From the NCBI GenBank assembly GCA_020341815.1, contig CP070837.1:1368195-1432194 (forward strand): 64,000 bases of DNA, read 5' to 3'. Below the pieces are notes generated by a model. That model was given only the letters and a program-made list of their open reading frames with translations. It did no database searches and had not been told where the DNA came from. A program made the position numbers and the translations under genes. The DNA is from Candidatus Omnitrophota bacterium. GTDB lineage: Bacteria; Omnitrophota; Gorgyraeia; JAFGHF01. This document shows positions 1,418-17,372 of the stretch, in pieces; the first letter of the stretch is position 1, and each line of letters starts with the position of its first letter.

Positions 1418-1615
1418 ATGAAGAAATTTATTGAGTCGTACACTGTAGAAGAATTAGCTGAGGCAGTTAAGCTTCATCCTTATACTATCAGACGTCTTTG
1501 TCGAGAAGGCAAGATTCCTTGCTTTAAGTTTGGGGGGCAATGGCGATTTGATATCGGGGAAATAGAAGAATGGCGAAGAAATCAAAACAAATCACAGCTT
1601 GCGCCAAATCGATAA
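1418..1615 (+). CDS. excisionase-family helix-turn-helix DNA-binding protein
   Basis: 65 aa. The YTVEELAEAVKLHPYTIRRLCREGKIP-F-FGGQWRF pattern matches MerR-superfamily excisionase/HTH_17 domains. Confidence 0.55.
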   Translation: MKKFIESYTVEELAEAVKLHPYTIRRLCREGKIPCFKFGGQWRFDIGEIEEWRRNQNKSQLAPNR

Positions 1616-2286
1616 AAAATTGGCCTGAAGATGATAGGCCGAGAGAAAAGCTTTTTAAATCCGGCGAACATACTTTAAGTAATACTGAGCTTTTAGCTAT
1701 ACTTTTACGCAGCGGTGTAAAGGGGCAAAGCGCGATTGACTTATCCAGAAAGATACTCTCTAAGTTTAAGACTCTCCGCAATATGAGCCACACGGACATA
1801 AGAGACTGGAAAGAATTCAAAGGATTGGGGCAAGCTAAGATTGCTCAGATTAGAGCAGCTATGGAACTTGGTAGAAGATTTTCAACAGAGAACACGCAAC
1901 CCAAAGGAAAAGTTAAAAGTTCTAAGGACATTGCCGATTTATTTATGGGGCGCATGCGAGATCTTAAAAAAGAGGTATTTAAGATTTTGCTTCTTGATAA
2001 CCGAAATCAAATTATCGAGACTATTGAATTAGCAGAAGGAACAGTAAATCAGGCAAATCCCATAGTAAGGGAGATTATGTCAAAGGCATTGCAAAATTTT
2101 GCATCTGCTTTGGCTTGTGTCCATAATCATCCAACGGGGGATTGCACTCCTAGCAAAGAAGATAGAGAATTTACTAGAGGGTTATGCCAAGCGAGCAATA
2201 TTATGCAGATGAAGGTTGTCGACCACATTATCATTGGCGACAATACATATTTTAGTTTTGTCGACAGAGGTCAGTTGCCTATTTAA
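1570..2286 (+). CDS. radC: RadC-like JAB/MPN domain protein (UPF0758)
   Basis: Contains the ELLAILLRSG helix-hairpin-helix-like N-terminus and the JAMM motif HNHPTGD with downstream PS..D. Overlaps the HTH ORF by 46 nt in another frame. Confidence 0.75.
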   Translation: MAKKSKQITACAKSIKNWPEDDRPREKLFKSGEHTLSNTELLAILLRSGVKGQSAIDLSRKILSKFKTLRNMSHTDIRDWKEFKGLGQAKIAQIRAAMELGRRFSTENTQPKGKVKSSKDIADLFMGRMRDLKKEVFKILLLDNRNQIIETIELAEGTVNQANPIVREIMSKALQNFASALACVHNHPTGDCTPSKEDREFTRGLCQASNIMQMKVVDHIIIGDNTYFSFVDRGQLPI

Positions 2287-2298
2287 AGGTTAAAGAGT

Positions 2299-4989
2299 AT
2301 GTCAGAGAGAGATTGGAACGAATATATAACACGTAAGAAATATATCGATAAGCTTCTTATCGAGTCTCAATGGGGACCTGTAGTTCAATATGAAGAGAAT
2401 AAGCGATACAAGCATGCATCAATTGAAGAATACCCCACAGAGACAGGTCCAGCAGATTATGCGCTTTTCCATAATAAAAAGCCTTTTTCCATTGTAGAAG
2501 GCAAGAAAGTTATCGTTGGTGTACAAAATGTTTTACAACAAGCTCAGCGCTATTCCAGAGGCTTCAAAGATAGTCCTTTTGCCTTTCACGAGTTCAAAGT
2601 TCCATTCATATACTCTACCAATGGAAAAATAATCTGGTTTCAAGATTTGCGCCATCCTGTGAATAGGTCACGTGAAGTAAAGAGATTTCATACACCCGAT
2701 GCCTTAGAAGAATTTCTATCACGCAACGAAGATGCAGCAAAAACTTGGCTTAAAAATACACCCATAGACAATCCTTATTTGCGCAATTATCAGAAGGAAG
2801 CCATAGGTAGTATTGAGAGAGCAATCCTTGAGAGAAAACGGAATATGCTTATCGCGATGGCAACTGGTACAGGTAAAACATTTACCATTATAAATTTAAT
2901 TTATCGGCTCATGAAGTCAGGATATGGCAAGCGTATACTATTCCTTGTTGATAGGCGTGCCTTAGCCGCACAAGCAGTAACAGCACTGGCAAGTTTTGAG
3001 GCAGAGCCTGGACTTAAATTTGACAAGATATACGAAGTATATAGCCAGCGTTTTAGACGCGAAGATCTTGATGAAGACATGAAGTTTGACCCAAAAGTTC
3101 TGCCCACGGAATATCTTACTAACCCTCAAGCTAAGCACAGCTTTGTATATGTATCCACAATTCAAAGAATGCGTATAAACCTTTTTGGCAATGCTGGCAT
3201 GTTTGGTCGTGCTACAGGTGATATGGAAGAGGAGGAGGGTGCTGAGAAGCTAGATATACCTATTCATGCCTTTGATGTAATTATTGCCGATGAGTGCCAC
3301 AGGGGTTATACCGCGCAAGAGGAAAGTAAATGGCGTGAGGCTCTAATGCACTTTGATGGCATTAGAGTAGGTTTAACCGCGACACCAGCAGCCCATACAA
3401 CAGCATTTTTCAAAGAAGTGGTTTATCGCTATGATTATGAGCGAGCAGTAAAAGAGGGATTTCTTGTTGATTATGATGCCGTAGCCATAAATTCAGATAT
3501 TACTATAAACGGCGTTTTCCTTAAACAAGGTGAAGAAATAGGACTAAAAGATACATCAACCGGCCAGTTAGTATTTGATATTTTAGAAGATGAAAGAGAG
3601 CTTGAGCCAGCAACCAATGAGAGCGAATGGACTGCTCCCGATAGAAACAAAAAGATAGTAAAAGAAATTAAAAAATATCTGCTTGACCAAGAGGAACAGC
3701 TTGGTCATTTTCCAAAGACTTTAATTTTTGCTAATAATGATATTGAGCATATATCACACTGCGATCAACTGGTGAACATATTGAGAGACGAGTTCAACCG
3801 AGGTGATTCCTTTGTTCAAAAGATAACTGGAAGCTCGACAGTTGACAGGCCGCTACAAAGAATCCGAGAGTTTAGAAACAGGCAAAATCCCGGTATTGTT
3901 GTTACTGTAGATATGCTTTCAACAGGTGTGGATATTCCAAAGGTCGAGAATATTATCTTTTTACGGCCTGTAAAATCAAGAATACTTTTTGAGCAGATGA
4001 TGGGCCGCGGGACACGCCTTTGTGAAGAGATTAACAAAACCCATTTTACTGTTTTTGATTGTTTCCGGGGAACACTTTTAGAATATTTTAGAAAAACCAC
4101 AGCCATTACAGCCGAAGCTCCCATTAAGCCAACCAGGATTATCAAAGAAGTGGTGCAGGCAATTGCTGATAATCAGGATAGAGCTTATAACATAAGTGTA
4201 TTATCCAAGCGCCTTCAGCGCATATCCAAAAACATAACTCAAGAAAGCAGAAGTCAATTTAACTATATCTTAGGTGATGTTGATATTGCAGAATTTGCTA
4301 AGAACCTTGGGGAAAGACTTGATAAGGATTGGGCTGGCACGATGCGTGTTTTACAGAGCGAAGGCTTCTTTAGTATGTGCGACAATTATCAACGACCCTT
4401 AAAGAAGCAAATTGTAGCCGAAGGAGCCGAAGATATCGTTTCTTCTGAGATTGTCTTTCGTGCAACGGATGGAAACAAGCTAAGGCCAGAAGATTATCTT
4501 AAACTCTTTGAGAAATTTGTTCGGGAAAATCCAGAGCATATCCAAGCTTTAGAAATACTAATAAACAAACCAAAAGATTTCCATGTCAGAGAATTAAAAG
4601 AATTACGGCTAAAACTATCAACCAAACCCGATGATTTAGTAGATAAATTTAAAGAACAGAATCTAAGGCGGGCATATAATAAAGAATTAGCTGATATTGT
4701 TTCAATTATAAGGCACGCTGCAAAAGGAGAGGAGCTTATTACAGCAGAATCAAGGATTGACAGAGCATTGGCAAAGGTTAAGGCGAGCCATAACTTTAGT
4801 GAAGCGCAGGAAAAATGGCTTGGCTTGATACGCCGCCATTTAATAGCCAACCTTCTTATAGAGAGAGACGATATAGACTCTTTGCCTATTTTTACACGCG
4901 AAGGATTAAATTATCGAAAATTAAATAAGATATTTAACGGTGAATTGGATGAAATATTACAGGAAATTAACGAGGCGGTATTAATATGA
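2299..4989 (+). CDS. hsdR: Type I restriction enzyme R subunit (endonuclease/helicase)
   Basis: 896 aa. N-terminal PD-(D/E)xK-like region (PADYALF..EGKK). Helicase motif I MATGTGKT and motif II DECHRG. 3' end overlaps hsdM by 4 nt. Confidence 0.85.
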   Translation: MSERDWNEYITRKKYIDKLLIESQWGPVVQYEENKRYKHASIEEYPTETGPADYALFHNKKPFSIVEGKKVIVGVQNVLQQAQRYSRGFKDSPFAFHEFKVPFIYSTNGKIIWFQDLRHPVNRSREVKRFHTPDALEEFLSRNEDAAKTWLKNTPIDNPYLRNYQKEAIGSIERAILERKRNMLIAMATGTGKTFTIINLIYRLMKSGYGKRILFLVDRRALAAQAVTALASFEAEPGLKFDKIYEVYSQRFRREDLDEDMKFDPKVLPTEYLTNPQAKHSFVYVSTIQRMRINLFGNAGMFGRATGDMEEEEGAEKLDIPIHAFDVIIADECHRGYTAQEESKWREALMHFDGIRVGLTATPAAHTTAFFKEVVYRYDYERAVKEGFLVDYDAVAINSDITINGVFLKQGEEIGLKDTSTGQLVFDILEDERELEPATNESEWTAPDRNKKIVKEIKKYLLDQEEQLGHFPKTLIFANNDIEHISHCDQLVNILRDEFNRGDSFVQKITGSSTVDRPLQRIREFRNRQNPGIVVTVDMLSTGVDIPKVENIIFLRPVKSRILFEQMMGRGTRLCEEINKTHFTVFDCFRGTLLEYFRKTTAITAEAPIKPTRIIKEVVQAIADNQDRAYNISVLSKRLQRISKNITQESRSQFNYILGDVDIAEFAKNLGERLDKDWAGTMRVLQSEGFFSMCDNYQRPLKKQIVAEGAEDIVSSEIVFRATDGNKLRPEDYLKLFEKFVRENPEHIQALEILINKPKDFHVRELKELRLKLSTKPDDLVDKFKEQNLRRAYNKELADIVSIIRHAAKGEELITAESRIDRALAKVKASHNFSEAQEKWLGLIRRHLIANLLIERDDIDSLPIFTREGLNYRKLNKIFNGELDEILQEINEAVLI

Positions 4990-6392
4990 GCGATATTGTC
5001 CAAAAATTGTGGGGTTTTTGCCATACCTTAAGGCACGATGGCATTGATTATGGTGACTACATCGAACAACTTACTTATTTACTTTTTCTTAAAATGGCAG
5101 AGGAAAGAGGCGCTGATATACCTAAAGAATATTCTTGGCGCGTGCTTCGTGAAAAATCAGGAACAGAACTGACTGATTTTTATACCGATGTTTTAAGAGG
5201 ACTAGGAAAACAAAAGAATACTTTGGGTCAAATCTATGGGGGTGCTATTTCAAGATTCAGCAATCCTGTTAATCTTAAAAAACTTATAAATCTTATAGAT
5301 GAAACAGAGTGGACCTCTTTGAATGTTGATGTAAAAGCCGCTGCATATGAGGGCCTTTTAGAGAAAAGCGCATCAGAGGGCAAAAAGGGAGCGGGTCAAT
5401 ATTTTACCCCAAGAATTTTAATCCAGTCTATCGTTCGTTGTATGAAACCCGATCCGCGCAAGATAAAAGACTTTACTATACATGACCCCGCGGCAGGCAC
5501 AGGCGGTTTCTTGGTCTGCGCTTATGAATGGCTTATTGAGCATACCAAGGGTGGCTTTGAGAGAGAAGATGCAAAACGGATTATGACAAAAACCTATTCT
5601 GGAACTGAGCTCGTTGCTCGGCCTCGCCGCCTTGCTCTTATGAACTTATATCTACATGGCATACATGGTGATATAGCTTTGGGCGATTCAATATACGAAC
5701 CTCCAAAAAGCACAAGATACTCATGCATACTTACTAATCCTCCCTTTGGCACAAAAGGTGCAAACCAAGCACCGACAAGAGATGATTTTACAGTTTCTAC
5801 CTCAAACAAACAGCTTAATTTTATCCAACATGTAGTAAATATTCTGAAGCCCGGCGGTCGCGCAGCAATGGTCCTACCTGATAACTGTCTTTTTGAAGAT
5901 AAAGCGGGGGAAGTTATCAAAAACTTAATGGAAGATTGTAATCTTCATACTGTATTACGTTTACCAAGAGGAACTTTTACACCATATAGTCAAGGTGTAA
6001 AAGCGAATGTGATATTTTTCCAGAAAGGTATGGCAACAGAAAATGTGTGGATATTTGATGCACGTTCAAATATTCCTTCGGTTACCAAGAAAGACCGCCC
6101 TTTATCTGCCACGCACTTTAAAGAATTCGAGAATTGCTACGGTAAAAATCCCGATGCTAGAGCTAAACGTGAAGATTTAGGGAAATCAGGCCGTTTTCGT
6201 TCTTTTCACATCGAACAAATAAAAGAACGCGGGTATAAACTTGATATTACATGGCTAAAGGATGAATCTCTGGATGATCCTGAAGATTTACCCGAACCGC
6301 AGGATTTGGCATCCGATGCTATTACTGAACTTGAAACGGTCGTGGATAACCTCAAAGAAATCGTAGCGGAGTTAGAGAATAATGGAGAATAA
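4986..6392 (+). CDS. hsdM: Type I restriction-modification N6-adenine DNA methyltransferase subunit
   Basis: AdoMet motif DPAAGTGGFL and catalytic NPPFG motif (ILTNPPFGTKG). HsdM N-terminal domain. Confidence 0.9.
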   Translation: MSDIVQKLWGFCHTLRHDGIDYGDYIEQLTYLLFLKMAEERGADIPKEYSWRVLREKSGTELTDFYTDVLRGLGKQKNTLGQIYGGAISRFSNPVNLKKLINLIDETEWTSLNVDVKAAAYEGLLEKSASEGKKGAGQYFTPRILIQSIVRCMKPDPRKIKDFTIHDPAAGTGGFLVCAYEWLIEHTKGGFEREDAKRIMTKTYSGTELVARPRRLALMNLYLHGIHGDIALGDSIYEPPKSTRYSCILTNPPFGTKGANQAPTRDDFTVSTSNKQLNFIQHVVNILKPGGRAAMVLPDNCLFEDKAGEVIKNLMEDCNLHTVLRLPRGTFTPYSQGVKANVIFFQKGMATENVWIFDARSNIPSVTKKDRPLSATHFKEFENCYGKNPDARAKREDLGKSGRFRSFHIEQIKERGYKLDITWLKDESLDDPEDLPEPQDLASDAITELETVVDNLKEIVAELENNGE

Positions 6393-7677
6393 GTTAAAGC
6401 AAGGATGGGTTAATAAAAGAATTGAGGAAATTTGTCGAATTATCAAGGATAAAGGGGCATCTGGAGAGGTCCCTTATTTAGAAATTGGAAATATAGATAT
6501 ATCCAAAAAGACCTATATCTTTACAAACAAACCCTCAGTCAAAGGATGTAAATGTGCTAAAAAAAATGATATTTTAATATCGCGGGTAAGACCTACAAGA
6601 GGAGCAATTGTAATTGTGAATGAAGATGAGCTTGCTGTTTCGTCTGCCTTTACTATTTTGCGTAATAATAGAAATAGTTTAACAGATAAATATTTATGGT
6701 TTTATTTGGCATGGAACCATAATTTTCTTAATTATTTAGGTGATAATTGCACTGGTACGATGTATCCAACAGTAGGAGAGAAAACGATTATAAATTATTT
6801 GATACCGCTTGCGCCCTTGAATGGACAAAAGCGCATTGTTAATAAATTGGATATGCTGTTAGCAAAACTCAAAGAGTGCCGGATTCGCCTTGAAAAAATC
6901 CCATTGTCCATAAAACGCTTTCGTCAATCAGTCCTAGCAGCAACTTACTCTGGCCGTCTTACTGCTGAGTGGCGAACGAATAAGCCCAGTACACCTACAG
7001 TTCTTGGTGGTAAGCAGAATGCAGTTCCAGTTAAAGACCTTATAGATATACCAAACACATGGCGATGGATAAAATTGTCGAATGTAGGCGAAATGAGTCG
7101 TGGTAAATCGAGGCACCGTCCACGGAATGCTTCTTTTCTCTTTGGTGGACCGTATCCTTTTATTCAAACAGGAGACATTGCTCAATCGGGAGGACGCATT
7201 TTAAAACACAAGCAGACTTATAGTGAAGACGGACTTGCCCAGAGTCGGCTTTGGCCAGCACAAACTGTATGTATAACAATTGCAGCCAATATTGCAGAAT
7301 CAGCAGTTTTGACCTATCCCGCATGTTTTCCTGATAGCGTTGTAGGTATTATTACTGATCGCTCTAAATGTTTACCAGAATACCTCGAGTATTTTATTAG
7401 AATAACTAAATCTGATCTCGCAACTTTCGCTCCTGCGACTGCTCAAAAGAATATAAATATAAAGATTTTAAGCGATGTCTATGTCCCTTTACCTCCGGTA
7501 GAGGAGCAAAAAGAGATTATTAATCGGGTTCAGTGTATGTTTAAAATAGCAGACCGAATCCTTACTCGTTATGCGAAGGCTAAAAGCCATATTGGTAACC
7601 TGTCCCAATCAATTCTCGCCAAAGCTTTCAGAGGCGAATTGGTTGAGCAGGATCCAAATGATGAGCCAGCAAATTAA
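6382..7677 (+). CDS. hsdS: Type I restriction-modification specificity subunit
   Basis: Two target-recognition-domain halves separated by a conserved central helix (LDMLLAKLKE) and a C-terminal conserved helix (SILAKAFRGELV). Overlaps hsdM by 11 nt. Confidence 0.8.
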   Translation: MENKLKQGWVNKRIEEICRIIKDKGASGEVPYLEIGNIDISKKTYIFTNKPSVKGCKCAKKNDILISRVRPTRGAIVIVNEDELAVSSAFTILRNNRNSLTDKYLWFYLAWNHNFLNYLGDNCTGTMYPTVGEKTIINYLIPLAPLNGQKRIVNKLDMLLAKLKECRIRLEKIPLSIKRFRQSVLAATYSGRLTAEWRTNKPSTPTVLGGKQNAVPVKDLIDIPNTWRWIKLSNVGEMSRGKSRHRPRNASFLFGGPYPFIQTGDIAQSGGRILKHKQTYSEDGLAQSRLWPAQTVCITIAANIAESAVLTYPACFPDSVVGIITDRSKCLPEYLEYFIRITKSDLATFAPATAQKNINIKILSDVYVPLPPVEEQKEIINRVQCMFKIADRILTRYAKAKSHIGNLSQSILAKAFRGELVEQDPNDEPAN

Positions 7678-7761
7678 TCCCGGGGACAGCTCACTTAATT
7701 CTCGATAGATTAGTTGTTTCAGGAATATACCCTACTTACACCTACACCGCGTAGGTGTAAG
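7676..7761 (+). repeat. family-A intergenic repeat copy 1 (AATCCCGGGGACAGCTCACTTAATTCTCGATAGATTAGTTGTTTCAGG) plus an 11-bp-stem hairpin (CTTACACCTAC / GTAGGTGTAAG) at 7735..7761
   Basis: Starts inside the hsdS stop codon. The same about 48-nt core recurs at 11213, 12571/12656, 15402 and 17343. The hairpin is followed by T-runs, so it is probably the terminator of the RM operon. Confidence 0.6.
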
Positions 7762-7883
7762 TAAAACACTTAATTTTCGACTTTTCGGATAAATAAGTAT
7801 TGTGTCCCTAGATTTTTGGAGTTATTGTGGGTGGGGAGTGGAGATGGTAGGTTAAATATACGTACTAGGCCTCAAAATTTATC

Positions 7884-7912
7884 TTGAGATTGTTTGTTTT
7901 TAGAGGTATAAT
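7884..7912 (+). promoter_or_regulatory. sigma70-like promoter TTGAGA-N17-TATAAT with no ORF behind it
   Basis: Near-identical sequence (TTGAGn-N17-...TTTTAGAGGTATAAT) recurs at 14711..14739 in front of a real gene. Here it is followed by a structured non-coding region of about 140 nt and then the tRNA-like element. Confidence 0.35.
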
Positions 7913-8059
7913 GAGAGAGGCACTTTTCGGTTTAAAAAGGGGTATTTCTTTTGGTGCGTGAAGTGTTGCACCTATTTAGTTTTGCCCGCCAAGGGACCAG
8001 TAAAGTAGGTCCTTTATATATATCCTTCTCCATGAGGAAAATATGTGGGGTGGGATCAT

Positions 8060-8132
8060 GGGCGTGTAGCTCAAGTGGATAGAGCGGCGTCCTGCTAAGA
8101 CGCTAGTTGGGGGTTCGAATCCCCCCACGAAA
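8060..8132 (+). tRNA. tRNA-like element or tRNA pseudogene: class I cloverleaf with GCU (Ser-type) anticodon loop, acceptor stem only 4 of 7 bp
   Basis: D-arm TAGCTCAAGTGGATAGAGC, anticodon stem-loop GCGTC-CUGCUAA-GACGC and T-arm GGGGGTTCGAATCCCCC are all canonical. The 5' acceptor GGGCGTG faces 3' CACGAAA, so positions 1-3 are unpaired. There is a 5-nt variable loop even though the anticodon is Ser-like. Confidence 0.4.
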
Positions 8133-8318
8133 TTAATACCCTTGTAGGGGTATATAAAATAGATGAGATAAATGATAAAGATATGATAGCAGTTTCTACT
8201 TTGAAAATAGGACACTTTCCCGAACAATTTGAGAAATGGTATATATCTTTAAAATTTGTCTAAGGATAACAAGAAAGTTAACATTCTCAGTAAATGGTGA
8301 TATTGTGGAGGCAAATAT

Positions 8319-8963
8319 ATGGAAAAACATAAGGATTTTTGGAACTTGATATTAGTTGGAAAATGGAATAAATATATTCTTTCTCCACAATGGGCAGCAA
8401 AAAATATTTTTGAAGAGCCAGAATTGCAAGTCGAATTTCCTTTGAATTTAGACTTTCCTCTAAGATATACCTCTTTAGAAAAAAATATAAGACTGCTTCC
8501 CGCAGAAGACAAAGTAATTTTTGTCCCATTGAAGCTAGATGATGAATGTCTTTCAGAAGTTGGAAAGCTCACAAATAAATTGTTCGAAATGTTACCACAT
8601 ACTCCGATGAGGGCATTTGGTATAAATTTTGGGTTTTCTGAAAAAGACAACACAGAGTTATACAAAGTGTTTAATGTAATAGACAATGCTAAGTTGGGAG
8701 AATTTAACTGCGAACTCAAGCAAACATGTATTATAAGGCGTACTGTTTATGATGAAAATAATTTAAATTTAAGATTAACATTAAAAGGTAATGAGGTATT
8801 ATTTGATTTTAATTTTCACTATGATGTAAAAAATGCTGTGGAAGCAAAAGAAAAATTAAAAGATAATATAGTCAAAAACAAAAATGCTGCAGAGAAACTC
8901 TTGCAGGAGGTATACGGTCTTAGCTACGATGATATAGAGCAAAAGAAAAGGGGGGTAGTATGA
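8319..8963 (+). CDS. hypothetical protein, first gene of an AT-rich four-gene operon
   Basis: Strong RBS GGAGG 9 nt upstream. About 30% GC. No recognisable motif. Stop overlaps the next start (ATGA). Confidence 0.55.
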   Translation: MEKHKDFWNLILVGKWNKYILSPQWAAKNIFEEPELQVEFPLNLDFPLRYTSLEKNIRLLPAEDKVIFVPLKLDDECLSEVGKLTNKLFEMLPHTPMRAFGINFGFSEKDNTELYKVFNVIDNAKLGEFNCELKQTCIIRRTVYDENNLNLRLTLKGNEVLFDFNFHYDVKNAVEAKEKLKDNIVKNKNAAEKLLQEVYGLSYDDIEQKKRGVV

Positions 8964-9262
8964 ATATGGTAGGAACTTCAAATCTATATCTATATTCAAG
9001 TTCTTTTCCAATTCAAGCAAGCATAGGGGATGTTGAAGAATATACAGTAAAATCTTTGACAGAAGAAAAAAAAGATATACAAACTAGTAATGATTTAAGT
9101 ATAACACGATTTGATGCTATAGAATTTCGGACTGCCTATTGGACAAAAGACACCCCGCTTAGTATTAATCTTGAACTTAATTTTGATAATATAGAAAAGC
9201 GCAGATTACTATATGATTTGAATACTGAAGAAAAAGATATAAATGCCACATTTCACATATAA
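8960..9262 (+). CDS. hypothetical small protein (100 aa)
   Basis: Translationally coupled to the flanking genes. AT-rich. No motif recognised. Confidence 0.45.
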   Translation: MNMVGTSNLYLYSSSFPIQASIGDVEEYTVKSLTEEKKDIQTSNDLSITRFDAIEFRTAYWTKDTPLSINLELNFDNIEKRRLLYDLNTEEKDINATFHI

Positions 9263-10121
9263 AAGACCTACCACACAATTATCCCAAGGTGACATACTCG
9301 CAAAGACAGAAGACATAAAAAGAGTTCTGGAAAAAGTCCACCCTCATTATCTCAAAGAAGATTACCTCTATTTTATTGTATTAACGCAATCCTGCGATTT
9401 AGTTCGTAGAAAAGGCGATCGTTGCATTGCTCAATACATTACACTGGCTGCTATTCGTCCTCTAGAGCTTTTAATTGCAAGACAAATAAGAAAATACCAA
9501 AAAGATATTATTGAAATAAAAGGAAAATTTGTTGCCCGTTCAAAACAAAACCTGTTAAATAATTTTATTACTCGGTTATTAAATAACAATGAACCAGACT
9601 ATTTTTATCTACACGAAGATGCAACTATGGGCTTTCCTGAATCTTGTGTAGCTTTTTTGAGATTGTCAATCGCACTTAAAGCAAGCCTACATTATGAAAA
9701 TTGTCTAAAAGCCAAAAAGCTGGAGCTCGATGATAATTTTAAGGCCAAACTGGGATGGCTTGTTGGAAATATATATTCGAGGGTAGGTACTGATGATTGG
9801 GTTCCGGACTACAGGGATGAAGGTCAATTTAATAAAATGATACAAGAGATTTTAAATGCAAACTGCCTTTGGATAGATAATATAAAAGAATTTTTGAGAC
9901 AGGTTCGTTCAAAATATACTTCTGAGCAAATTGAAAGAATGAGAGAAACGGAATTGCAAAAATTGGTACAGACTATTAGAATCCCTACTAAAAAAGAACA
10001 GATTTTAAATCGATTACAAGAGTTGCTACACCAAGATACAACTATAACAGACAAGAGTGTTGTTGGTAAAGTTATTAAAAGGATCAAAAACGACACAACG
10101 ATATCTGGCTTGTTAAAATAA
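9243..10121 (+). CDS. hypothetical protein (292 aa)
   Basis: Overlaps the upstream gene by 20 nt. Has a conserved-looking LSQGDIL...YFIVLTQSCDL segment. No family assigned. Confidence 0.5.
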   Translation: MPHFTYKRPTTQLSQGDILAKTEDIKRVLEKVHPHYLKEDYLYFIVLTQSCDLVRRKGDRCIAQYITLAAIRPLELLIARQIRKYQKDIIEIKGKFVARSKQNLLNNFITRLLNNNEPDYFYLHEDATMGFPESCVAFLRLSIALKASLHYENCLKAKKLELDDNFKAKLGWLVGNIYSRVGTDDWVPDYRDEGQFNKMIQEILNANCLWIDNIKEFLRQVRSKYTSEQIERMRETELQKLVQTIRIPTKKEQILNRLQELLHQDTTITDKSVVGKVIKRIKNDTTISGLLK

Positions 10122-10183
10122 GCATTCTAACTAATTTATATAAAAATAAAAGCTAAAAAACTTTGAGAAATGGAGATAGCACT

Positions 10184-11161
10184 ATGTCATTAGCAATAAA
10201 TACAACAACGCCAGAAGGAATTGTTTTAGCAACTGATAGTAGACAATCTTATCGTAATCGTAAAGGAATGGCCCGAATAGGAAGTGATAATGCTTCTAAG
10301 CTTTTTCAGCTAAACAAAAGAGTTGGAGTTGCCGTAACTGGGTTAGCATTTTTGCCTGAAAATGGAGTACCTAAAAATATAAGTAAGTTTATTGAAGAAT
10401 TTAAACGGGAAACTGAAGTAGAAAAATTAGATGTCAAAGATATAGCTGAAAAATTACATTTTCTTTTTAACGAAAAATATAGATGGGAAGAACAATTAGA
10501 TAAAATACCAGAAAAGATTAAGGGTGATCTTCAAAAACAAGGCTGCGAAGTCCTAGAAATTAAAAAAGAACAATATAGAGTTAAATTCCGTTTCAAAGAT
10601 CCTCAAGGTAATGTAAAAGATGGTGTAGGTGGAGTAGATATGATAATTCTTTTAGTTGCAGGATATAATAAAAATGGTTCTCACGAGGTCCATATTTGTT
10701 ATATTCCAGGAGAAATTCAAAAGAAAAGAGATAGCAGAGAAAGAGGCAAAGAATATGGTGCTTCTTGGATTGGGCAAAGCGATGTAGTGATACGGATTAT
10801 TTTGGGTTGTGATAGTAGGGTAAGAAATATTAAGTTTGTTAATGAAGCAATTCAAAAATATAATATAGAAGAGATAAATAAACAACTAAGAAACTTACAA
10901 TATAACATTCAATGGGGCACAATGGCTCTTCAGGATGCTGTTGATTTCTGTGTTCTGATGATTCAGACTACTTCAGCTATTCAACGGTTCTCGGATGGCA
11001 TTCTAGCCGACCTTGGAGCCATGCCAGGTGTTGGTGGTTCTGTTGATGTTGCAGTAATAACACCTGATAAAGGATTTGTTTGGCTAAGTAAAAAGACGTT
11101 AAAAGCTGGAAAGGCTGAGATAGATTTAGATAAAGAATCCTATTCAGATAAGCTAGAATAG
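10184..11161 (+). CDS. proteasome beta-subunit / HslV-like Ntn-hydrolase domain protein with a C-terminal extension of unknown function
   Basis: The N-terminus reads ...AIN-TTTPEGIVLATDSRQSY...ASKLFQLNKRVGVAVTGLA. This matches the proteasome beta/HslV signature: N-terminal Thr nucleophile after a short propeptide, then (V)(L)A(A/T)DSR, then the ...GVA.(T/S)G strand. RBS GGAGAT lies before the ATG at 10184; the ORF track starts at 10163. Confidence 0.5.
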   Translation: MSLAINTTTPEGIVLATDSRQSYRNRKGMARIGSDNASKLFQLNKRVGVAVTGLAFLPENGVPKNISKFIEEFKRETEVEKLDVKDIAEKLHFLFNEKYRWEEQLDKIPEKIKGDLQKQGCEVLEIKKEQYRVKFRFKDPQGNVKDGVGGVDMIILLVAGYNKNGSHEVHICYIPGEIQKKRDSRERGKEYGASWIGQSDVVIRIILGCDSRVRNIKFVNEAIQKYNIEEINKQLRNLQYNIQWGTMALQDAVDFCVLMIQTTSAIQRFSDGILADLGAMPGVGGSVDVAVITPDKGFVWLSKKTLKAGKAEIDLDKESYSDKLE

Positions 11162-11191
11162 TTGTTTTAATAGAACTTCCAACTTTCCACC

Positions 11192-11310
11192 CAATCCCTA
11201 AGAATCCCTAAGAATTCCGGGCATAATTCGCGGGAATTCCAGGGACAGCTCACTTAATTCCCGATAGATTAGTTGTTTCAGGGATTATGCTTTACTTACA
11301 CCTACGAGGT
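11192..11310 (+). repeat. family-A intergenic repeat copy 2, with a CCCTAAGAAT tandem duplication and AATTCCnGGG direct sub-repeats
   Basis: AATTCCGGGCATAATTCGCGGGAATTCCAGGGACAGCTCACTTAATTCCCGATAGATTAGTTGTTTCAGGGATTATGCTTTACTTACACCTAC. It is colinear with copy 1 through the CTTACACCTAC half-site. Confidence 0.6.
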
Positions 11311-11333
11311 GGTAATTGAAAACAGGAGGTATA

Positions 11334-12593
11334 ATGTTACAATCACCACAGCAGACGAACATTTCATTTGACGGTCTGGGCATCGCTCCCAGGATACTTG
11401 AAATATTGGACCGGATGCGGTTTACTCATCCTACGACCATTCAACACAAGGCTATTCCTATCGGAATAGAAGGAAAGGATGTTATCGGTATCGCTCAGAC
11501 CGGAACCGGTAAAACGCTTGCTTTTGCTATCCCCATTATCCAGCGCCTTTCCCAGAGAAAAAAAGGACGCGCTTTAATTCTTGCGCCTACCAGGGAGCTT
11601 GCTGTCCAGATTAACGAGACGTTTGAAAAAATAGCCCCGTCATTCGGCATAAAGACGGTTGTTATTATAGGGGGAGCGTCTATGCATATGCAGCTGGCGG
11701 CATTGAGAAAGAACCCCCGCGTTATAATAGCGACACCCGGACGGCTTGTCGATCACATAGGCCGGCGCACAGTCTTTTTAGCGGACACAAATGTTTTAGT
11801 GCTTGATGAGGCCGATCGTATGTTTGACATGGGGTTTATGCCGCAGATAGAACGCATCCTCAAGGTTGTTCCGAAAAATAAACAGACGATGCTCTTTTCG
11901 GCGACAATCTCCGGGGAAGTTGTGAAAATAGCAGCCGCCTATATGAAGCTTCCTGTTCATGTCGAAGTCGCGCCATCCGGAACTGCCGCCGAAGGCGTAA
12001 TTCAGGAATTATTTATTGTTAAAAAGAACGCAAAGAAACGGCTCTTATTGAAATTGCTCCAGGGGTATCACGGAGCGGTGCTTGTCTTTTCCCGGACGAA
12101 GATGGGCGCTGGAAGGATTGCCAGATTTATCAGAGAGGCAGGCCATAGTGCCGCTGAGATACATTCCAATCGCTCGCTTAACCAGCGCAAACAAGCGCTT
12201 GAGGGTTTTAAGTCCGGCAGATATAGAGTGCTTGTTGCTACCGATATAGCGGCCAGGGGTATAGATGTTATCGGTATAGAGCTTGTTCTTAACTATGATA
12301 TCCCCGATGATACAGAAAATTACGTGCATCGCATCGGGCGCACAGGACGCGCCGGCCACAAAGGGCGGGCCATCTCTTTCGCCACGCCTGAGCAAGGCGG
12401 CGATGTCCGCAATATAGAAAGACTTATCAAAACCGCTTTGCCTATAGCCGAGCACCCCGAGTTTCCCCGGGAAAGATTTACTCAGCATTCTTCAAAGGGC
12501 TCGCAGTCTCGTCAGTTTCACGGCAGGAGAAGACATAAGCAAAGAAGACGAAAGAGGCCCCGTCGCTCCGAATCCCGGGGACACAACACTTAA
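11334..12593 (+). CDS. DEAD-box ATP-dependent RNA helicase (RhlE/DeaD-like)
   Basis: Q-motif region followed by motifs AQTGTGKT, PTRELA, DEAD (VLDEADRM), SAT and HRIGRTGRAG, plus a basic C-terminal tail. RBS AGGAGG lies before the ATG at 11334. The stop sits inside family-A repeat copy 3. Confidence 0.85.
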   Translation: MLQSPQQTNISFDGLGIAPRILEILDRMRFTHPTTIQHKAIPIGIEGKDVIGIAQTGTGKTLAFAIPIIQRLSQRKKGRALILAPTRELAVQINETFEKIAPSFGIKTVVIIGGASMHMQLAALRKNPRVIIATPGRLVDHIGRRTVFLADTNVLVLDEADRMFDMGFMPQIERILKVVPKNKQTMLFSATISGEVVKIAAAYMKLPVHVEVAPSGTAAEGVIQELFIVKKNAKKRLLLKLLQGYHGAVLVFSRTKMGAGRIARFIREAGHSAAEIHSNRSLNQRKQALEGFKSGRYRVLVATDIAARGIDVIGIELVLNYDIPDDTENYVHRIGRTGRAGHKGRAISFATPEQGGDVRNIERLIKTALPIAEHPEFPRERFTQHSSKGSQSRQFHGRRRHKQRRRKRPRRSESRGHNT

Positions 12594-15759: not shown

Positions 15760-15787
15760 GAACCGGAACCCGGGAAAGGAAGTGACT

Positions 15788-17329
15788 ATGGAAAATAAGC
15801 CTTGGTATATGAGAGTGTTATTAGCTATACAGAGTTTCTTTACGGACATCATAGGTACTATTTTTAAGAAGATCTTTCGCATAAATGTCGGCGCGAGTGA
15901 TAACGGCAACGGTGGCACAAACGCTGATGACACTGACACTGACACTGACACTGACACTGACACCGATACTGATACCGATACTGATACTATGATTCAGTGG
16001 CTGAAGACCAATGTTTTTGCAGATGGTATGCCCCGCAGTTTTGAAGTCCCGAAAGATTGGAGTGCAATTGGCGAGCCTGATACGGTGGAAGGGGTTATCG
16101 AAAGGATTATTATTAATAATAGCATCAGTACTTACGATGGCGCTACCTGGCAGATAGCTTTAGCTGTGGAAGGCGGAAAAGATAATTTAGCTGCCGCCGA
16201 TAAGTTTACCGAGGTTCTTAACAGTGGCAGCTGGTCTGAGCTGGAAATCATACGCGGCTACAAAGAATTTATCTATAGGGGTAAAAGATTGCCTGAGCAA
16301 AATGCCTATTTCTTCAGGCTTATTTCCCCTAACTGGCAGCAGCCTGACCCGTTAGATGGTAAGACCCATATTAAGGGATATCCCGGGCCAGATTATGATC
16401 GTGACCTTATTGTTTGGGCCGACTGGAAGCCGATTACAGGGGAAAATGCCTGGGTTATTATAGGTGCATTACAAACTGCCTATAAGAAATATAATGGAGA
16501 GGTTCCCTTAGACAAAGACGAGTTCAAATTGGCAGAAAGCATTATTCCGGCAATGGAGGCTCTGCAGATAGATATGGGAGCTATTTTGCATGCGCCGGAA
16601 GGTACTGACGGCAAGGACCCCGATGAGATCTCTACCGAAAATGACCTTTCGGCCTATGCCGCCTTGAAGATGATGCATAAAGTTACTAATGACTCTAGAT
16701 ATGATAGAATGATGCAGGGCCTGAGGAGCTATTTCATAGAATATGCTTTTGACAAAAGTAATAATATCTTCTATCAAGGGGGAAAATTCAAAAATAATAA
16801 CTTTAGCCCTAACCTAACCTTTGCGGTTGATTGTCAAACATGGGGTATTATGGTATTGACCCCTAAGACAATAGATGAATGGTTTAATGAAGAAGGCTTG
16901 GCCTATAAAATATGGAAGAATACCAAGAGACGTGCCGGCTATTATGATGTAAACGGTGTTTTAAGAGGGGTAGGTTATAGCGATGAAAAAGATATCTTAA
17001 GTGTAGAGTGGACGGCAGGCGCCATTTTTGCTGCTCATGCCTTAGCCGATTATTACAAGGATAGTCGGGGGGAGGAAGCTGCCAGGGATGCTCGTACTAT
17101 GAGGGAGGGTATCGATGAACTGAAATTGAAAATTAACAGCAAAGAGACCGCCTACTATTATGCTAATAAACGGTATTATATACCCTTTGGTTGGTGGGCT
17201 AACCCTATACTCAGCACCACTTCTACGGCTTGGGTATACTTTGTAGATAAAGGCTTTGATCCTTTCTTGCTTGGAGGAAGAAAGGATATTTCTATTTCAA
17301 TTCCCAATTTTTCGAATTCCTTAAAATAA
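15788..17329 (+). CDS. hypothetical protein with an N-terminal (Thr-Asp)10 low-complexity tract
   Basis: ORF-track start 15782 is GTG. ATG at 15788 has RBS GGAAAGGAAG. No catalytic motif identified. Glycosidase-like alpha-toroid is possible but unsupported. Confidence 0.5.
   Translation: MENKPWYMRVLLAIQSFFTDIIGTIFKKIFRINVGASDNGNGGTNADDTDTDTDTDTDTDTDTDTDTMIQWLKTNVFADGMPRSFEVPKDWSAIGEPDTVEGVIERIIINNSISTYDGATWQIALAVEGGKDNLAAADKFTEVLNSGSWSELEIIRGYKEFIYRGKRLPEQNAYFFRLISPNWQQPDPLDGKTHIKGYPGPDYDRDLIVWADWKPITGENAWVIIGALQTAYKKYNGEVPLDKDEFKLAESIIPAMEALQIDMGAILHAPEGTDGKDPDEISTENDLSAYAALKMMHKVTNDSRYDRMMQGLRSYFIEYAFDKSNNIFYQGGKFKNNNFSPNLTFAVDCQTWGIMVLTPKTIDEWFNEEGLAYKIWKNTKRRAGYYDVNGVLRGVGYSDEKDILSVEWTAGAIFAAHALADYYKDSRGEEAARDARTMREGIDELKLKINSKETAYYYANKRYYIPFGWWANPILSTTSTAWVYFVDKGFDPFLLGGRKDISISIPNFSNSLK
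15926..15988 (+). repeat. hexanucleotide microsatellite (GACACT/GATACY)x10 encoding (TD)n
   Basis: Read directly from the sequence. The unit is in-frame (6 nt), so expansion or contraction changes linker length without shifting the frame. Confidence 0.8.
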
Positions 17330-17372
17330 TAAGGACGGGAAAAATTCCGGGGATAGCTTACTTAATTCCCGG
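17323..17372 (+). repeat. family-A repeat copy 5 (AATTCCGGGGATAGCTTACTTAATTCCCGG), preceded by the 16-mer AAAATAATAAGGACGG
   Basis: The 16-mer also occurs at 21610 and 23593 inside terminator hairpins. The repeat overlaps the stop of the 15788..17329 gene. Confidence 0.5.

Follow-up and report, generated by a model that had tools for sequence, protein, structure and literature searches.

The locus at positions 8319 to 11161 of the window (the whole 64,000-nucleotide stretch of Candidatus Omnitrophota DNA that we analyzed) consists of two unrelated modules lying side by side: a cassette of three genes, P1, P2, and P3, and a stand-alone gene, P4. Their adjacency in this Omnitrophota genome is incidental. 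The locus as a whole is probably best explained as an independent toxin-antitoxin (TA)-like or abortive-infection cassette and a horizontally acquired stand-alone proteasome homolog that became neighbors by chance. A proteasome-like protease serving as the effector of a multigene defense system, as a first-pass annotation of this DNA had suggested, would have been new; the association is accidental, and this false lead can be set aside.

Layout of the locus and its surroundings

Open reading frame (ORF) calling agreed with the four genes previously marked here, all on the + strand. These genes and the surrounding features are located in the window as follows:

7676-7745, left copy of a direct repeat of ~70 nt (repeat search), starting at the hsdS stop codon
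7734-7762, hairpin after the left direct repeat, with arms ACTTACACCTAC and GTAGGTGTAAGT
8063-8129, + strand, tRNA-like remnant (Rfam RF00005 match)
8319-8963, + strand, P1 ORF, 214 aa
8960-9262, + strand, P2 ORF, 100 aa
9243-10121, + strand, P3 ORF, 292 aa
10142-10183, + strand, P4 leader of ~40 nt with a GGAG ribosome-binding site (bounded by blastn matches)
10184-11161, + strand, P4 ORF, 325 aa
11235-11305, right copy of the ~70-nt direct repeat (repeat search), just 5' of the DEAD-box helicase gene
11316-12593, DEAD-box helicase gene

P1 and P2 overlap by 4 nt and P2 and P3 by 20 nt, which upholds the reported coupling of these genes. P4, however, is uncoupled: it begins past a 62-nt gap after P3, with no overlap. 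What had been described as a four-gene operon shows coupling and joint conservation in P1-P3 only. The block is low in GC, as previously observed, at 0.29 to 0.34 over positions 8250 to 11000 compared with 0.37 to 0.43 in hsdRMS and 0.46 to 0.50 downstream (P1-P3, 0.32; P4, 0.34; whole window, 0.44). We agree with the earlier view that this AT-rich block is foreign DNA within an island shared with a Type I restriction-modification (RM) system. The repeat copies said to bracket the genes were also recovered: the two direct repeats match over 51 nt at 92% and a further 24 nt at 83%, and an exact 41-mer occurs at 7683 and 11242 only (0 expected by chance). The broken tRNA reported nearby scored 49.1 bits against the Rfam tRNA model (gathering threshold, 29) over model positions 4 to 67 of 71, and ARAGORN called no tRNA anywhere in the window. 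The remnant retains complete D, anticodon (loop CUGCUAA), and T arms, with substituted sequence (CACGaaa) on the 3' side of its acceptor stem. A duplicate of the tRNA 3' end was considered as an attachment-site partner, and no second tRNA 3' half was found elsewhere in the window. The segment between the repeats, 7746 to 11234, is probably a mosaic of foreign AT-rich DNA carrying two functionally independent modules.

Independence of P4 from the P1-P2-P3 cassette

Neither module accompanies the other elsewhere. tblastn detected no match to P1, P2, or P3 in 54 genomic loci with a P4 homolog, and the P4 HMM had no match in 93 loci bearing the P1-P2-P3 cassette. Given this reciprocal absence, P4 does not act on the upstream genes' behalf as effector or processing enzyme, the role previously proposed for it. 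A four-gene cassette recurring in other genomes, a check suggested with that proposal, was found in none of the 54 plus 93 loci, so that for the four-gene version the refuting outcome named in the first-pass annotation has occurred. The boundaries of nucleotide similarity lead to the same separation. Similarity of P4 to other genomes extends from ~10142, past the P3 stop codon at 10121, to ~10 nt beyond the P4 stop codon, giving a homology block of 10142 to about 11172. Matches by blastn to many unrelated P4 loci start at 10141 to 10144, which puts the left edge of the P4 module 21 nt past the P3 stop. The leader sequence 'aaaaaatattttnaaatggagatgataatATG' travels with P4, being common to the window, loci L149, L001, and L002, and eight Atribacterota loci. 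Because P4 homology is confined to the stretch from ~10142 to just past its stop, the two modules have separate histories.

The arrangement in this genome could be taken to mean that all four genes form one novel defense system, with P4 as the protease that processes P1-P3 or acts as their effector. The genes lie on the same strand with equally low GC, the island holds a Type I RM system, and elsewhere a close P4 homolog adjoins defense-type genes (AAA_21 and RloB, ResIII). Co-transcription of P3 and P4 in the Omnitrophota genome is possible, given the shared strand, the 62-nt gap, and the absence of a terminator-like site between the two genes. As a conserved system, however, this arrangement is already refuted by the co-occurrence counts. 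In addition, the P4 homology block begins past the P3 stop and includes its own leader, and in Atribacterota and Methanobacteriaceae P4 resides in conserved housekeeping synteny. We therefore regard a single four-gene system as highly improbable.

The P1-P2-P3 cassette

P1-P2-P3 is a conserved, translationally coupled unit carried on integrative elements and prophages. A P1 homolog lies immediately 5' of P3 in 68 of 69 loci, and in 76 of 78 loci a small overlapping ORF of 68 to 114 aa (median, 85.5), with a putative antitoxin role, occupies the P2 slot just 5' of P3. Using tblastn, we found P1 at 30 to 35% and P3 at 42 to 45% identity in Desulfosarcina, Binataceae, Auribacter, and other genomes. 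Cassette neighbors include tyrosine integrase (12 loci), Fic (7 loci), the holin, CHAP lysin, and tail fiber genes of prophage lysis modules, and ParA, SSB, and Rep genes. Five IMG/VR contigs carry the cassette, and tblastn gave no P3 match among PLSDB plasmids and INPHARED phages. Both flanking families are large, P1 with 2,344 representative clusters at 50% identity (E ≤ 1e-3; all about 200 to 215 aa) and P3 with 1,319 hits.

The first-pass annotation could assign no family to P1, P2, or P3, and indeed none of the three matches a Pfam, NCBIfam, PADLOC, or PHROGs family. PADLOC-DB 2.0 returned only partial matches to the window proteins, at E ≥ 8.5e-4. No recurrent PADLOC family appeared among 44 P3 or 18 P1 homologs, nor did any recurrent family emerge when members of the P3 and P1 alignments were scanned one by one; 0 of 44 P3 family members had a Pfam match. 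Sequence-profile searches of the PDB with P3 and P1 gave only spurious matches to designed helical repeats, and a search of the literature turned up no relevant account of a three-gene system with a MazF fold.

P1 is a single-domain protein of a large uncharacterized family, with alignment-invariant positions that include G14, W16, N17, P23, W25, T95, P96, G101, N103, D122, N165, and H167. P2 is acidic (pI 4.5), with sequence similarity detectable to 5 loci only (E, 2e-6 to 2e-4). The P2-slot ORFs split into many BLAST clusters; P2 evolves fast and is a candidate antitoxin or adaptor. Against an antitoxin role, the slot products of other loci are frequently basic (median pI, 9.5), whereas classical antitoxins are acidic. 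P3 is the largest and best conserved protein of the cassette. Its residues about 10 to 175 adopt a MazF/Kid/CcdB/CptN-type toxin fold, an SH3-like barrel with insertions, followed by a variable helical tail at about 191 to 292. Conserved motifs are QGD (15 to 17), H33, TQSCDL (48 to 53), and KLGW..G...SR..T.DW (169 to 186). The catalytic Arg/Thr pair of MazF is not evident. P3 was also considered as a MazF relative at the sequence level and rejected, since hhalign against a MazF/Kid profile gave a probability of 0.1; Pfam PemK (PF02452) did not match P3. The toxin assignment of P3 comes from its fold alone, with no sequence link to MazF/Kid. CcdB has a MazF-like fold and is not an enzyme, so the fold does not by itself fix the activity of P3.

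P1-P2-P3 is most likely a tripartite toxin-antitoxin-like or abortive-infection module. We infer its toxicity, the roles of P1 and P2, and the trigger as follows: P3 would be a growth-arresting effector restrained by P2, the small fast-evolving protein in the usual antitoxin position; P1 may act as a regulator, chaperone, or sensor; and loss of the element or phage infection would free P3. The cassette could instead maintain or regulate mobile elements, for example as a DNA- or RNA-binding complex for integration, excision, or replication, with the P3 barrel as a binding scaffold only. Its proximity to integrase, Rep, ParA, and SSB genes fits such a function, as do the frequently basic P2-slot proteins and the lack in P3 of both recognizable MazF catalytic residues and sequence homology to MazF. 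We consider this maintenance function unlikely. For the toxin-antitoxin-like or abortive-infection module, thousands of members, carriage on prophages and integrative elements, a toxin fold, and absence from Pfam, NCBIfam, and PADLOC make the cassette a reasonable candidate for a new TA or defense family.

P4 and its place among known systems

Profile searches against Pfam and PADLOC, suggested with the first-pass annotation, and against NCBIfam and PHROGs gave no significant match for P1-P3 and for P4 only a weak one to PF00227 (E = 9e-4; 19.3 bits, below the 22.4 cut-off). Most close P4 homologs have a precomputed PF00227 match marked 'faint'. The proteasome-like signature noticed earlier in P4 was borne out by structure comparison of a predicted model, which has the alpha-beta-beta-alpha sandwich of the proteasome beta subunit and so places P4 among the proteasome-like Ntn hydrolases (peptidase family T1 sensu lato); the model is moderately confident (pLDDT 69.7) and poor in residues 21 to 36, 187 to 209, and 274 to 285. 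Two details of the earlier description were revised. Where a propeptide followed by TTT had been proposed, profile alignment to mature T. acidophilum beta sets Ser2 on Thr1, together with D18 on E17, K39 on K33, and G53 on G47 (oxyanion). Of 53 sequences, 50 have S and 3 have T at position 2, and the D18, K39, and G53 positions are invariant; the TTT at residues 7 to 9 is not. Only Met precedes position 1 in the alignment, i.e., there is no propeptide. Judging from the Met-Ser/Thr start of all homologs, removal of the initiator Met would expose a Ser1 nucleophile, aided by Asp18 and Lys39. Likewise, the C terminus does not consist of about 130 unassigned residues: residues 282 to 303 align to beta 168 to 189, the last two core strands lie at 287 to 304, and the extra length is in internal insertions. 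A short PHROG match to residues 282 to 305 corresponds to the conserved GxGG strand.

The insertions comprise a beta-hairpin (56 to 65), a three-strand beta element after H1/H2 (~122 to 150), and a helical element between H3/H4 (~207 to 244). In the model, the second has strands 122 to 128, 132 to 138, and 144 to 150, between helix 101 to 118 and the canonical S5/S6 segment 'LLVAGYN..G..V..Y.PG' at 154 to 174. The third has helices 211 to 215, 217 to 225, and 228 to 244, placed with moderate model confidence between helices 198 to 206 and 249 to 270. The pore-loop and H3/H4 insertions probably block the classical stacked-ring barrel, which would make a specific peptidase or transpeptidase more likely than a bulk protease. 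Alternatively, P4 might be a subunit of a classical self-compartmentalizing protease, an HslV-, Anbu-, or 20S-like ring served by an unfoldase from another locus, acting in housekeeping quality control of proteins. However, P4 has no conserved AAA+ partner or alpha-type subunit nearby (the flanks of P4 hold no HslU, other unfoldase, or alpha-type gene), the insertions occupy sites argued to clash with ring or double-ring assembly (PMC8665760), and the gene passes freely from one domain of life to another. A ring-forming P4 is doubtful on these grounds.

P4 homologs at 75 to 93% identity occur in Korarchaeota, Atribacterota, CPR, and Desulfobacterales, and the family as a whole (1,158 hits) includes Asgard and Korarchaeota bins, CPR, Atribacterota, Omnitrophota, Clostridia, and Actinomycetota. 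dN/dS is 0.04 to 0.15, and dS to the closest cross-phylum copies is only 0.26 to 1.2; between one copy binned to Heimdallarchaeota and another binned to Desulfobacteraceae, dS is 0.36. Purifying selection on P4 is strong, and the gene has repeatedly crossed between bacterial phyla and archaea; some very short archaea-binned contigs may be mis-binned. tblastn found no P4 match among PLSDB plasmids and INPHARED phages, and IMG/VR holds one relative only, at 28% identity. A conserved partner was sought among neighboring genes, where upstream ORFs form clade-specific clusters only and no neighbor family is common across clades.

P4 best fits the PMI proteins ('Proteasome homologs with Multiple Insertions'; Fuchs, Alva and Lupas, Bioinformatics 2021, PMC8665760), its placement with PMI-3/PMI-4 being made by features and not by comparison with the representatives OGZ26396.1 and HDY66466.1. 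We tentatively offer a broader reading of the locus, in which P1-P2-P3 would be a new widespread three-component abortive-infection/addiction system whose MazF/CcdB-fold effector, with non-MazF chemistry (conserved Gln-x-Cys-Asp and His), is under a fast-evolving partner and a conserved sensor, P1, and the PMI-type P4 would be a separate, promiscuously transferred, self-sufficient enzyme on a universally conserved target. Such a target, if true, would account for the 75 to 83% identity across bacteria, CPR, and archaea. This near-identity across domains of life, the predicted Ser1 nucleophile, and the ring-incompatible insertions make P4 a good candidate for biochemistry.

Relative to known TA systems, the cassette differs from MazF/PemK/Kid and CcdB toxins in that P3 has no detectable sequence homology to them, its domain is enlarged by insertions (~165 versus ~110 residues) and fused to a variable helical tail of ~100 residues, and P1, a conserved third gene, invariably accompanies it. 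In place of the Arg/Thr pair of MazF, P3 conserves QGD, H33, Q49, C51, and D52. The cassette resembles the tripartite systems omega-epsilon-zeta, PaaR-PaaA-ParE, and CmdTAC (toxin-antitoxin-chaperone) in having three co-transcribed genes on mobile elements, with the large toxin last and a small protein of ~90 aa right before it; however, P1-P3 are not homologous to any component of these systems, and P1, at 214 aa, exceeds typical regulators in size. The type III TA toxins ToxN/CptN/AbiQ are neutralized by an upstream-encoded tandem-repeat RNA, whereas two protein genes precede P3. An RNA antitoxin of this type was considered and rejected, the only repeat detected by TRF being a 10-nt unit in 2.3 copies at 11193 to 11215, downstream of P4.

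The kind of protein that P4 most likely represents is already cataloged. In contrast to 20S beta, Anbu, and HslV, P4 carries ~140 extra residues as internal insertions, has Ser rather than Thr as its predicted nucleophile, and lacks a propeptide, an alpha subunit, and a nearby HslU or other unfoldase. HslV is a compact subunit of ~175 aa encoded with its AAA+ partner HslU, and 20S beta undergoes autocatalytic propeptide removal before Thr1 and has a partner alpha subunit; P4 matches neither. PMI-3/-4 proteins have insertions after H1/H2 and between H3/H4, propeptides are absent outside beta and HslV, and PMI homologs have no conserved context, no known function, and a distribution shaped by horizontal transfer (PMC8665760). 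P4 agrees with PMI-3/-4 in its proteasome-like core, Ser/Thr1-Asp17-Lys33 triad, Gly47, and missing propeptide; in a long insertion after H1/H2 (the pore-loop site) and another between H3/H4; in lacking a conserved genomic context or AAA+ partner; and in a spread over Proteobacteria, 'other bacteria', and Euryarchaeota with signs of horizontal transfer. The collapse of PMI-3 from 28 sequences at nr90 to 11 at nr70 (PMC8665760) agrees with the very high conservation of P4, although the family is now far larger (1,158 hits) than PMI-3/-4 as of 2021. Connectase (MJ0548) is, like P4, a proteasome homolog with extra elements, but its H1/H2 loss and two-helix insertion between S3/S4 are not shared by P4. 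It nevertheless sets a precedent for unexpected activity in this family, in showing that a proteasome homolog may work as a monomer and as a transpeptidase of high specificity (Fuchs et al. PNAS 2021, PMC7980362).

Layout of the AT-rich block

The four open reading frames (ORFs) P1 to P4, which the first-pass annotation had read as one defence operon, lie exactly at the coordinates claimed for them:

8319-8963, + strand: P1, 214-aa ORF
8960-9262, + strand: P2, 100-aa ORF
9243-10121, + strand: P3, 292-aa ORF
10184-11161, + strand: P4, 325-aa ORF
8063-8129, + strand: tRNA-like remnant (Rfam tRNA model, 49.1 bits)
7676-7745 and 11235-11305: direct repeat of ~70 nt, flanking the remnant and P1-P4
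1418-1615 (65 aa), overlapping 1570-2286 (238 aa): upstream ORFs, same strand as the block
2299-4989, 4986-6392 and 6382-7677: large upstream ORFs, same strand

P1 and P2 overlap by 4 nt and P2 and P3 by 20 nt, and a 62-nt gap separates P3 from P4. GC content of the block was 0.29 to 0.34 (P1-P3, 0.32; P4, 0.34), versus 0.37 to 0.43 in the adjacent hsdRMS genes, 0.46 to 0.50 downstream, and 0.44 over the whole window. The upstream ORFs (1418-7677; GC 0.35 to 0.43, below the rest of the window) appear by sequence to be consistent with the excisionase-like HTH, RadC, and Type I hsdR/M/S genes originally proposed. The sequence-level observations of that annotation are sound and largely real.

The tRNA remnant covers only positions 4 to 67 of the 71 in the model because its 3′ acceptor strand has been replaced; the D, anticodon, and T arms are intact, with anticodon loop CUGCUAA and a short variable arm. 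ARAGORN detected no tRNA over the 64-kb window, which holds no intact tRNA, and the remnant may be the relic of an integration site. The 41-nt core of the direct repeat occurs only twice, once per copy (0 expected by chance). The repeat region spans 7676-7768 and 11235-11311, with a perfect 12-bp hairpin (7734-7762) closing the first copy, and may represent either a duplicated attachment site or a dispersed intergenic element. A degenerate short form of the core (GGGATAGCTTACTTAATT) recurs at 17350-17367, past the stop of a 515-aa ORF (15782-17329) that carries a low-complexity run of perfect (Asp-Thr)n repeats (DTDTDT...) close to its N-terminus. A short tandem repeat (AATCCCTAAG x 2.3, 11193-11215) follows the P4 stop, ahead of the right direct repeat.

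Co-occurrence of the four genes

None of the 1,319 relatives of P3 in the database carries a Pfam domain. In the gene tables of four distant homologs (Desulfosarcina variabilis, a Binataceae MAG, Candidatus Auribacter, and one further contig), a 208- to 215-aa gene and then a 76- to 96-aa gene preceded P3 in every case, and P4 was absent; P1 homology at distant P3 loci was 30 to 35% (tblastn identity). Another 85 cassette loci came from viral and metagenome collections, for a total of 93. A P1 HMM match lay directly upstream of P3 on the same strand at 68 of the 69 loci with at least 1 kb of upstream sequence, and an ORF of 68 to 114 aa lay between the two at 76 of 78. An exhaustive HMMER search with the P1 profile returned 2,344 representative clusters, all of ~200 to 215 aa. 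P2 diverges fast, the window copy being recognisably similar to those of only five other loci. P1-P2-P3 is the real conserved unit.

The P4 family is large (1,158 matches) and highly conserved; its best 120 matches are 75 to 93% identical and include Omnitrophota (the source, UCB56867.1), Korarchaeota, Desulfobacterales, Atribacterota, CPR3, and Doudnabacteria. With each GTDB species represented by one genome, a scan gave 54 P4 loci, among them long contigs from Methanobacteriaceae, Clostridia, Actinomycetota, Doudnabacteria, and Peribacteria. With tblastn, P1, P2, or P3 was matched at 0 of these 54 loci, and 0 of the 93 cassette loci contained a P4 homolog. These counts refute a single defence system of four genes in which a proteasome-like protein is the effector: in other genomes the three-gene unit is a conserved cassette, but the four-gene unit with P4 is not.

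The P3 fold and cassette function

In structure comparison, P3 scored highest against MazF (4mzm; 8.9, 104 of 115 residues aligned), followed by MazF-mt3 (8.5), MazF-mt1 (8.1), CptN (7.8), Kid (7.6), and CcdB (7.6). Against a verified MazF/Kid profile, the hhalign probability was 0.1, the relationship being undetectable at the sequence level. The toxin-fold half is well conserved, whereas the helical tail (191-292) is variable (majority-residue fractions, 0.64 versus 0.37). Since the invariant residues (Q15 G16 D17, H33, Q49, C51 D52, K169...W186) do not include the catalytic pair of MazF, MazF chemistry cannot be assumed. For a type III RNA antitoxin, we found no tandem repeat able to encode one.

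Tyrosine integrases neighboured the cassette most often (12 loci), followed by Fic proteins (7 loci). Among the IMG/VR prophages, it sits immediately 3′ of tail fibre, CHAP lysin, and holin genes, a classic accessory-gene position in prophages; no copy occurred in sequenced plasmids or isolated phages. The cassette closest to that of the window lies at locus L148 (897-3748; P3 64% and P1 63% identical); a gene for a ClpP-like serine protease of the SDH type (PF01972) precedes it, and its contig ends 150 nt after P3.

The cassette thus comprises three translationally coupled genes on mobile-element carriers, with a toxin-superfamily fold in the largest and best-conserved protein, P3, and a small, rapidly evolving middle protein, P2. 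We give slightly better than even chances to a toxin-antitoxin or abortive-infection module; a non-toxic function for the mobile element seems improbable. As a toxin-antitoxin or abortive-infection module, P3 would be the growth-arresting effector, P2 its neutraliser, and P1 a regulator, chaperone, or sensor, and the variable P3 tail may set target or trigger specificity. In the window, P2 is acidic (pI 4.5) and P3 basic (pI 9.3), with P2-slot proteins elsewhere heterogeneous in charge. What remains of the original proposal is a tripartite cassette, widespread and uncatalogued, that encodes a MazF/CcdB-fold protein and is plausibly a new toxin-antitoxin or defence family.

P4 among proteasome homologs

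P4 is a proteasome-family Ntn hydrolase. Its Pfam Proteasome match was sub-threshold (19.3 bits; cut-off, 22.4), and structure comparison gave 15.7 for 20S beta subunits (178 residues, 2.7 Å), 15.1 for Anbu, 10.8 for HslV, 9.8 for BPH, and 8.2 for Connectase. A profile of 48 homologs aligned to the mature Thermoplasma beta subunit at both ends (7-55 to beta 6-49; 282-303 to beta 168-189), placing Ser2, Asp18, Lys39, and Gly53 on beta Thr1, Glu/Asp17, Lys33, and Gly47. Across 53 distinct homologs, with identities as low as 41%, 50 had Ser and 3 had Thr at residue 2, and D18, K39, G53, D271, and G272 were invariant. The "TTT" at 7-9, previously taken as the nucleophile behind a propeptide, varies (ATT, TTI, ITT); given this, the conservation of residue 2, and the register of Ser2 with mature Thr1, P4 has no propeptide, and the nucleophile is probably Ser1 once Met is removed. 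The extra 130 to 140 residues, previously placed at the C-terminus (~130), are instead internal insertions:

56-65: small hairpin
~122-150: three-strand beta insertion, after H1/H2
~207-244: helical insertion, between H3 and H4

Clustering of the flanking ORFs revealed no neighbour family common to several clades, and synteny held within clades only. In Atribacterota, a gene for a TPR-like membrane protein precedes P4 and a MurD-like gene follows it; Methanobacteriaceae copies lie near hisF, an aminotransferase, and a PPIase; and other annotated contexts were just as heterogeneous. At L150 (4051-6978) and L151 (450-3377), an 82%-identical homolog directly follows a defence-type AAA_21 ATPase and RloB pair, with a ResIII helicase upstream and a radical-SAM gene after; P4 thus lands in variable, defence-rich regions of another genome too. 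In Peregrinibacteria-type CPR, a 206- to 220-aa gene directly precedes the homolog (gap of 2 nt in L025, L031, L033, L036, and L044; 13 nt in L010). Its N-terminus resembles, by eye, a LexA-type winged-helix DNA-binding domain, and it may encode a clade-specific partner or substrate. P4 itself would be a Ser1 Ntn peptidase or transpeptidase working without a dedicated partner.

Nucleotide similarity between the window and P4 loci starts at ~10142, 21 nt after the P3 stop, and ends ~10 nt past the P4 stop. It takes in a ~35- to 40-nt leader with a GGAG ribosome-binding site (10142-10183) before the ATG, conserved in Omnitrophota, in contigs binned to Heimdallarchaeota and Desulfobacteraceae, and at eight loci from Atribacterota; the transfer unit therefore carries its own translation signals. 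The low dN/dS (0.04 to 0.15) and a synonymous divergence of only 0.26 to 1.2 to the closest cross-phylum copies indicate that horizontal transfer has been recent and that purifying selection is strong, with some of the archaeal bins concerned being very short contigs.

The catalogue of Fuchs, Alva and Lupas (2021; PMC8665760) lists 22 new groups of proteasome homologs, including those with multiple insertions (PMI). In both PMI-3 and PMI-4, long insertions follow H1/H2 and a further one separates H3 from H4; only beta subunits and HslV bear propeptides; neither a conserved gene neighbourhood nor an AAA+ partner was detected; and horizontal transfer shaped the bacterial and archaeal spread (PMC8665760). 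PMI-3, from Proteobacteria, other bacteria, and Euryarchaeota, collapses from 28 sequences at nr90 to 11 at nr70 and so is very conserved (PMC8665760). P4 agrees with PMI-3/PMI-4 on every one of these features (insertions, lack of a propeptide, lack of a fixed context or partner, transfer, and conservation), which suggests this subgroup by match to published features. Whichever the subgroup, P4 adds a member to a kind that has been catalogued but is experimentally unstudied, and is an ordinary but striking PMI-type proteasome homolog.
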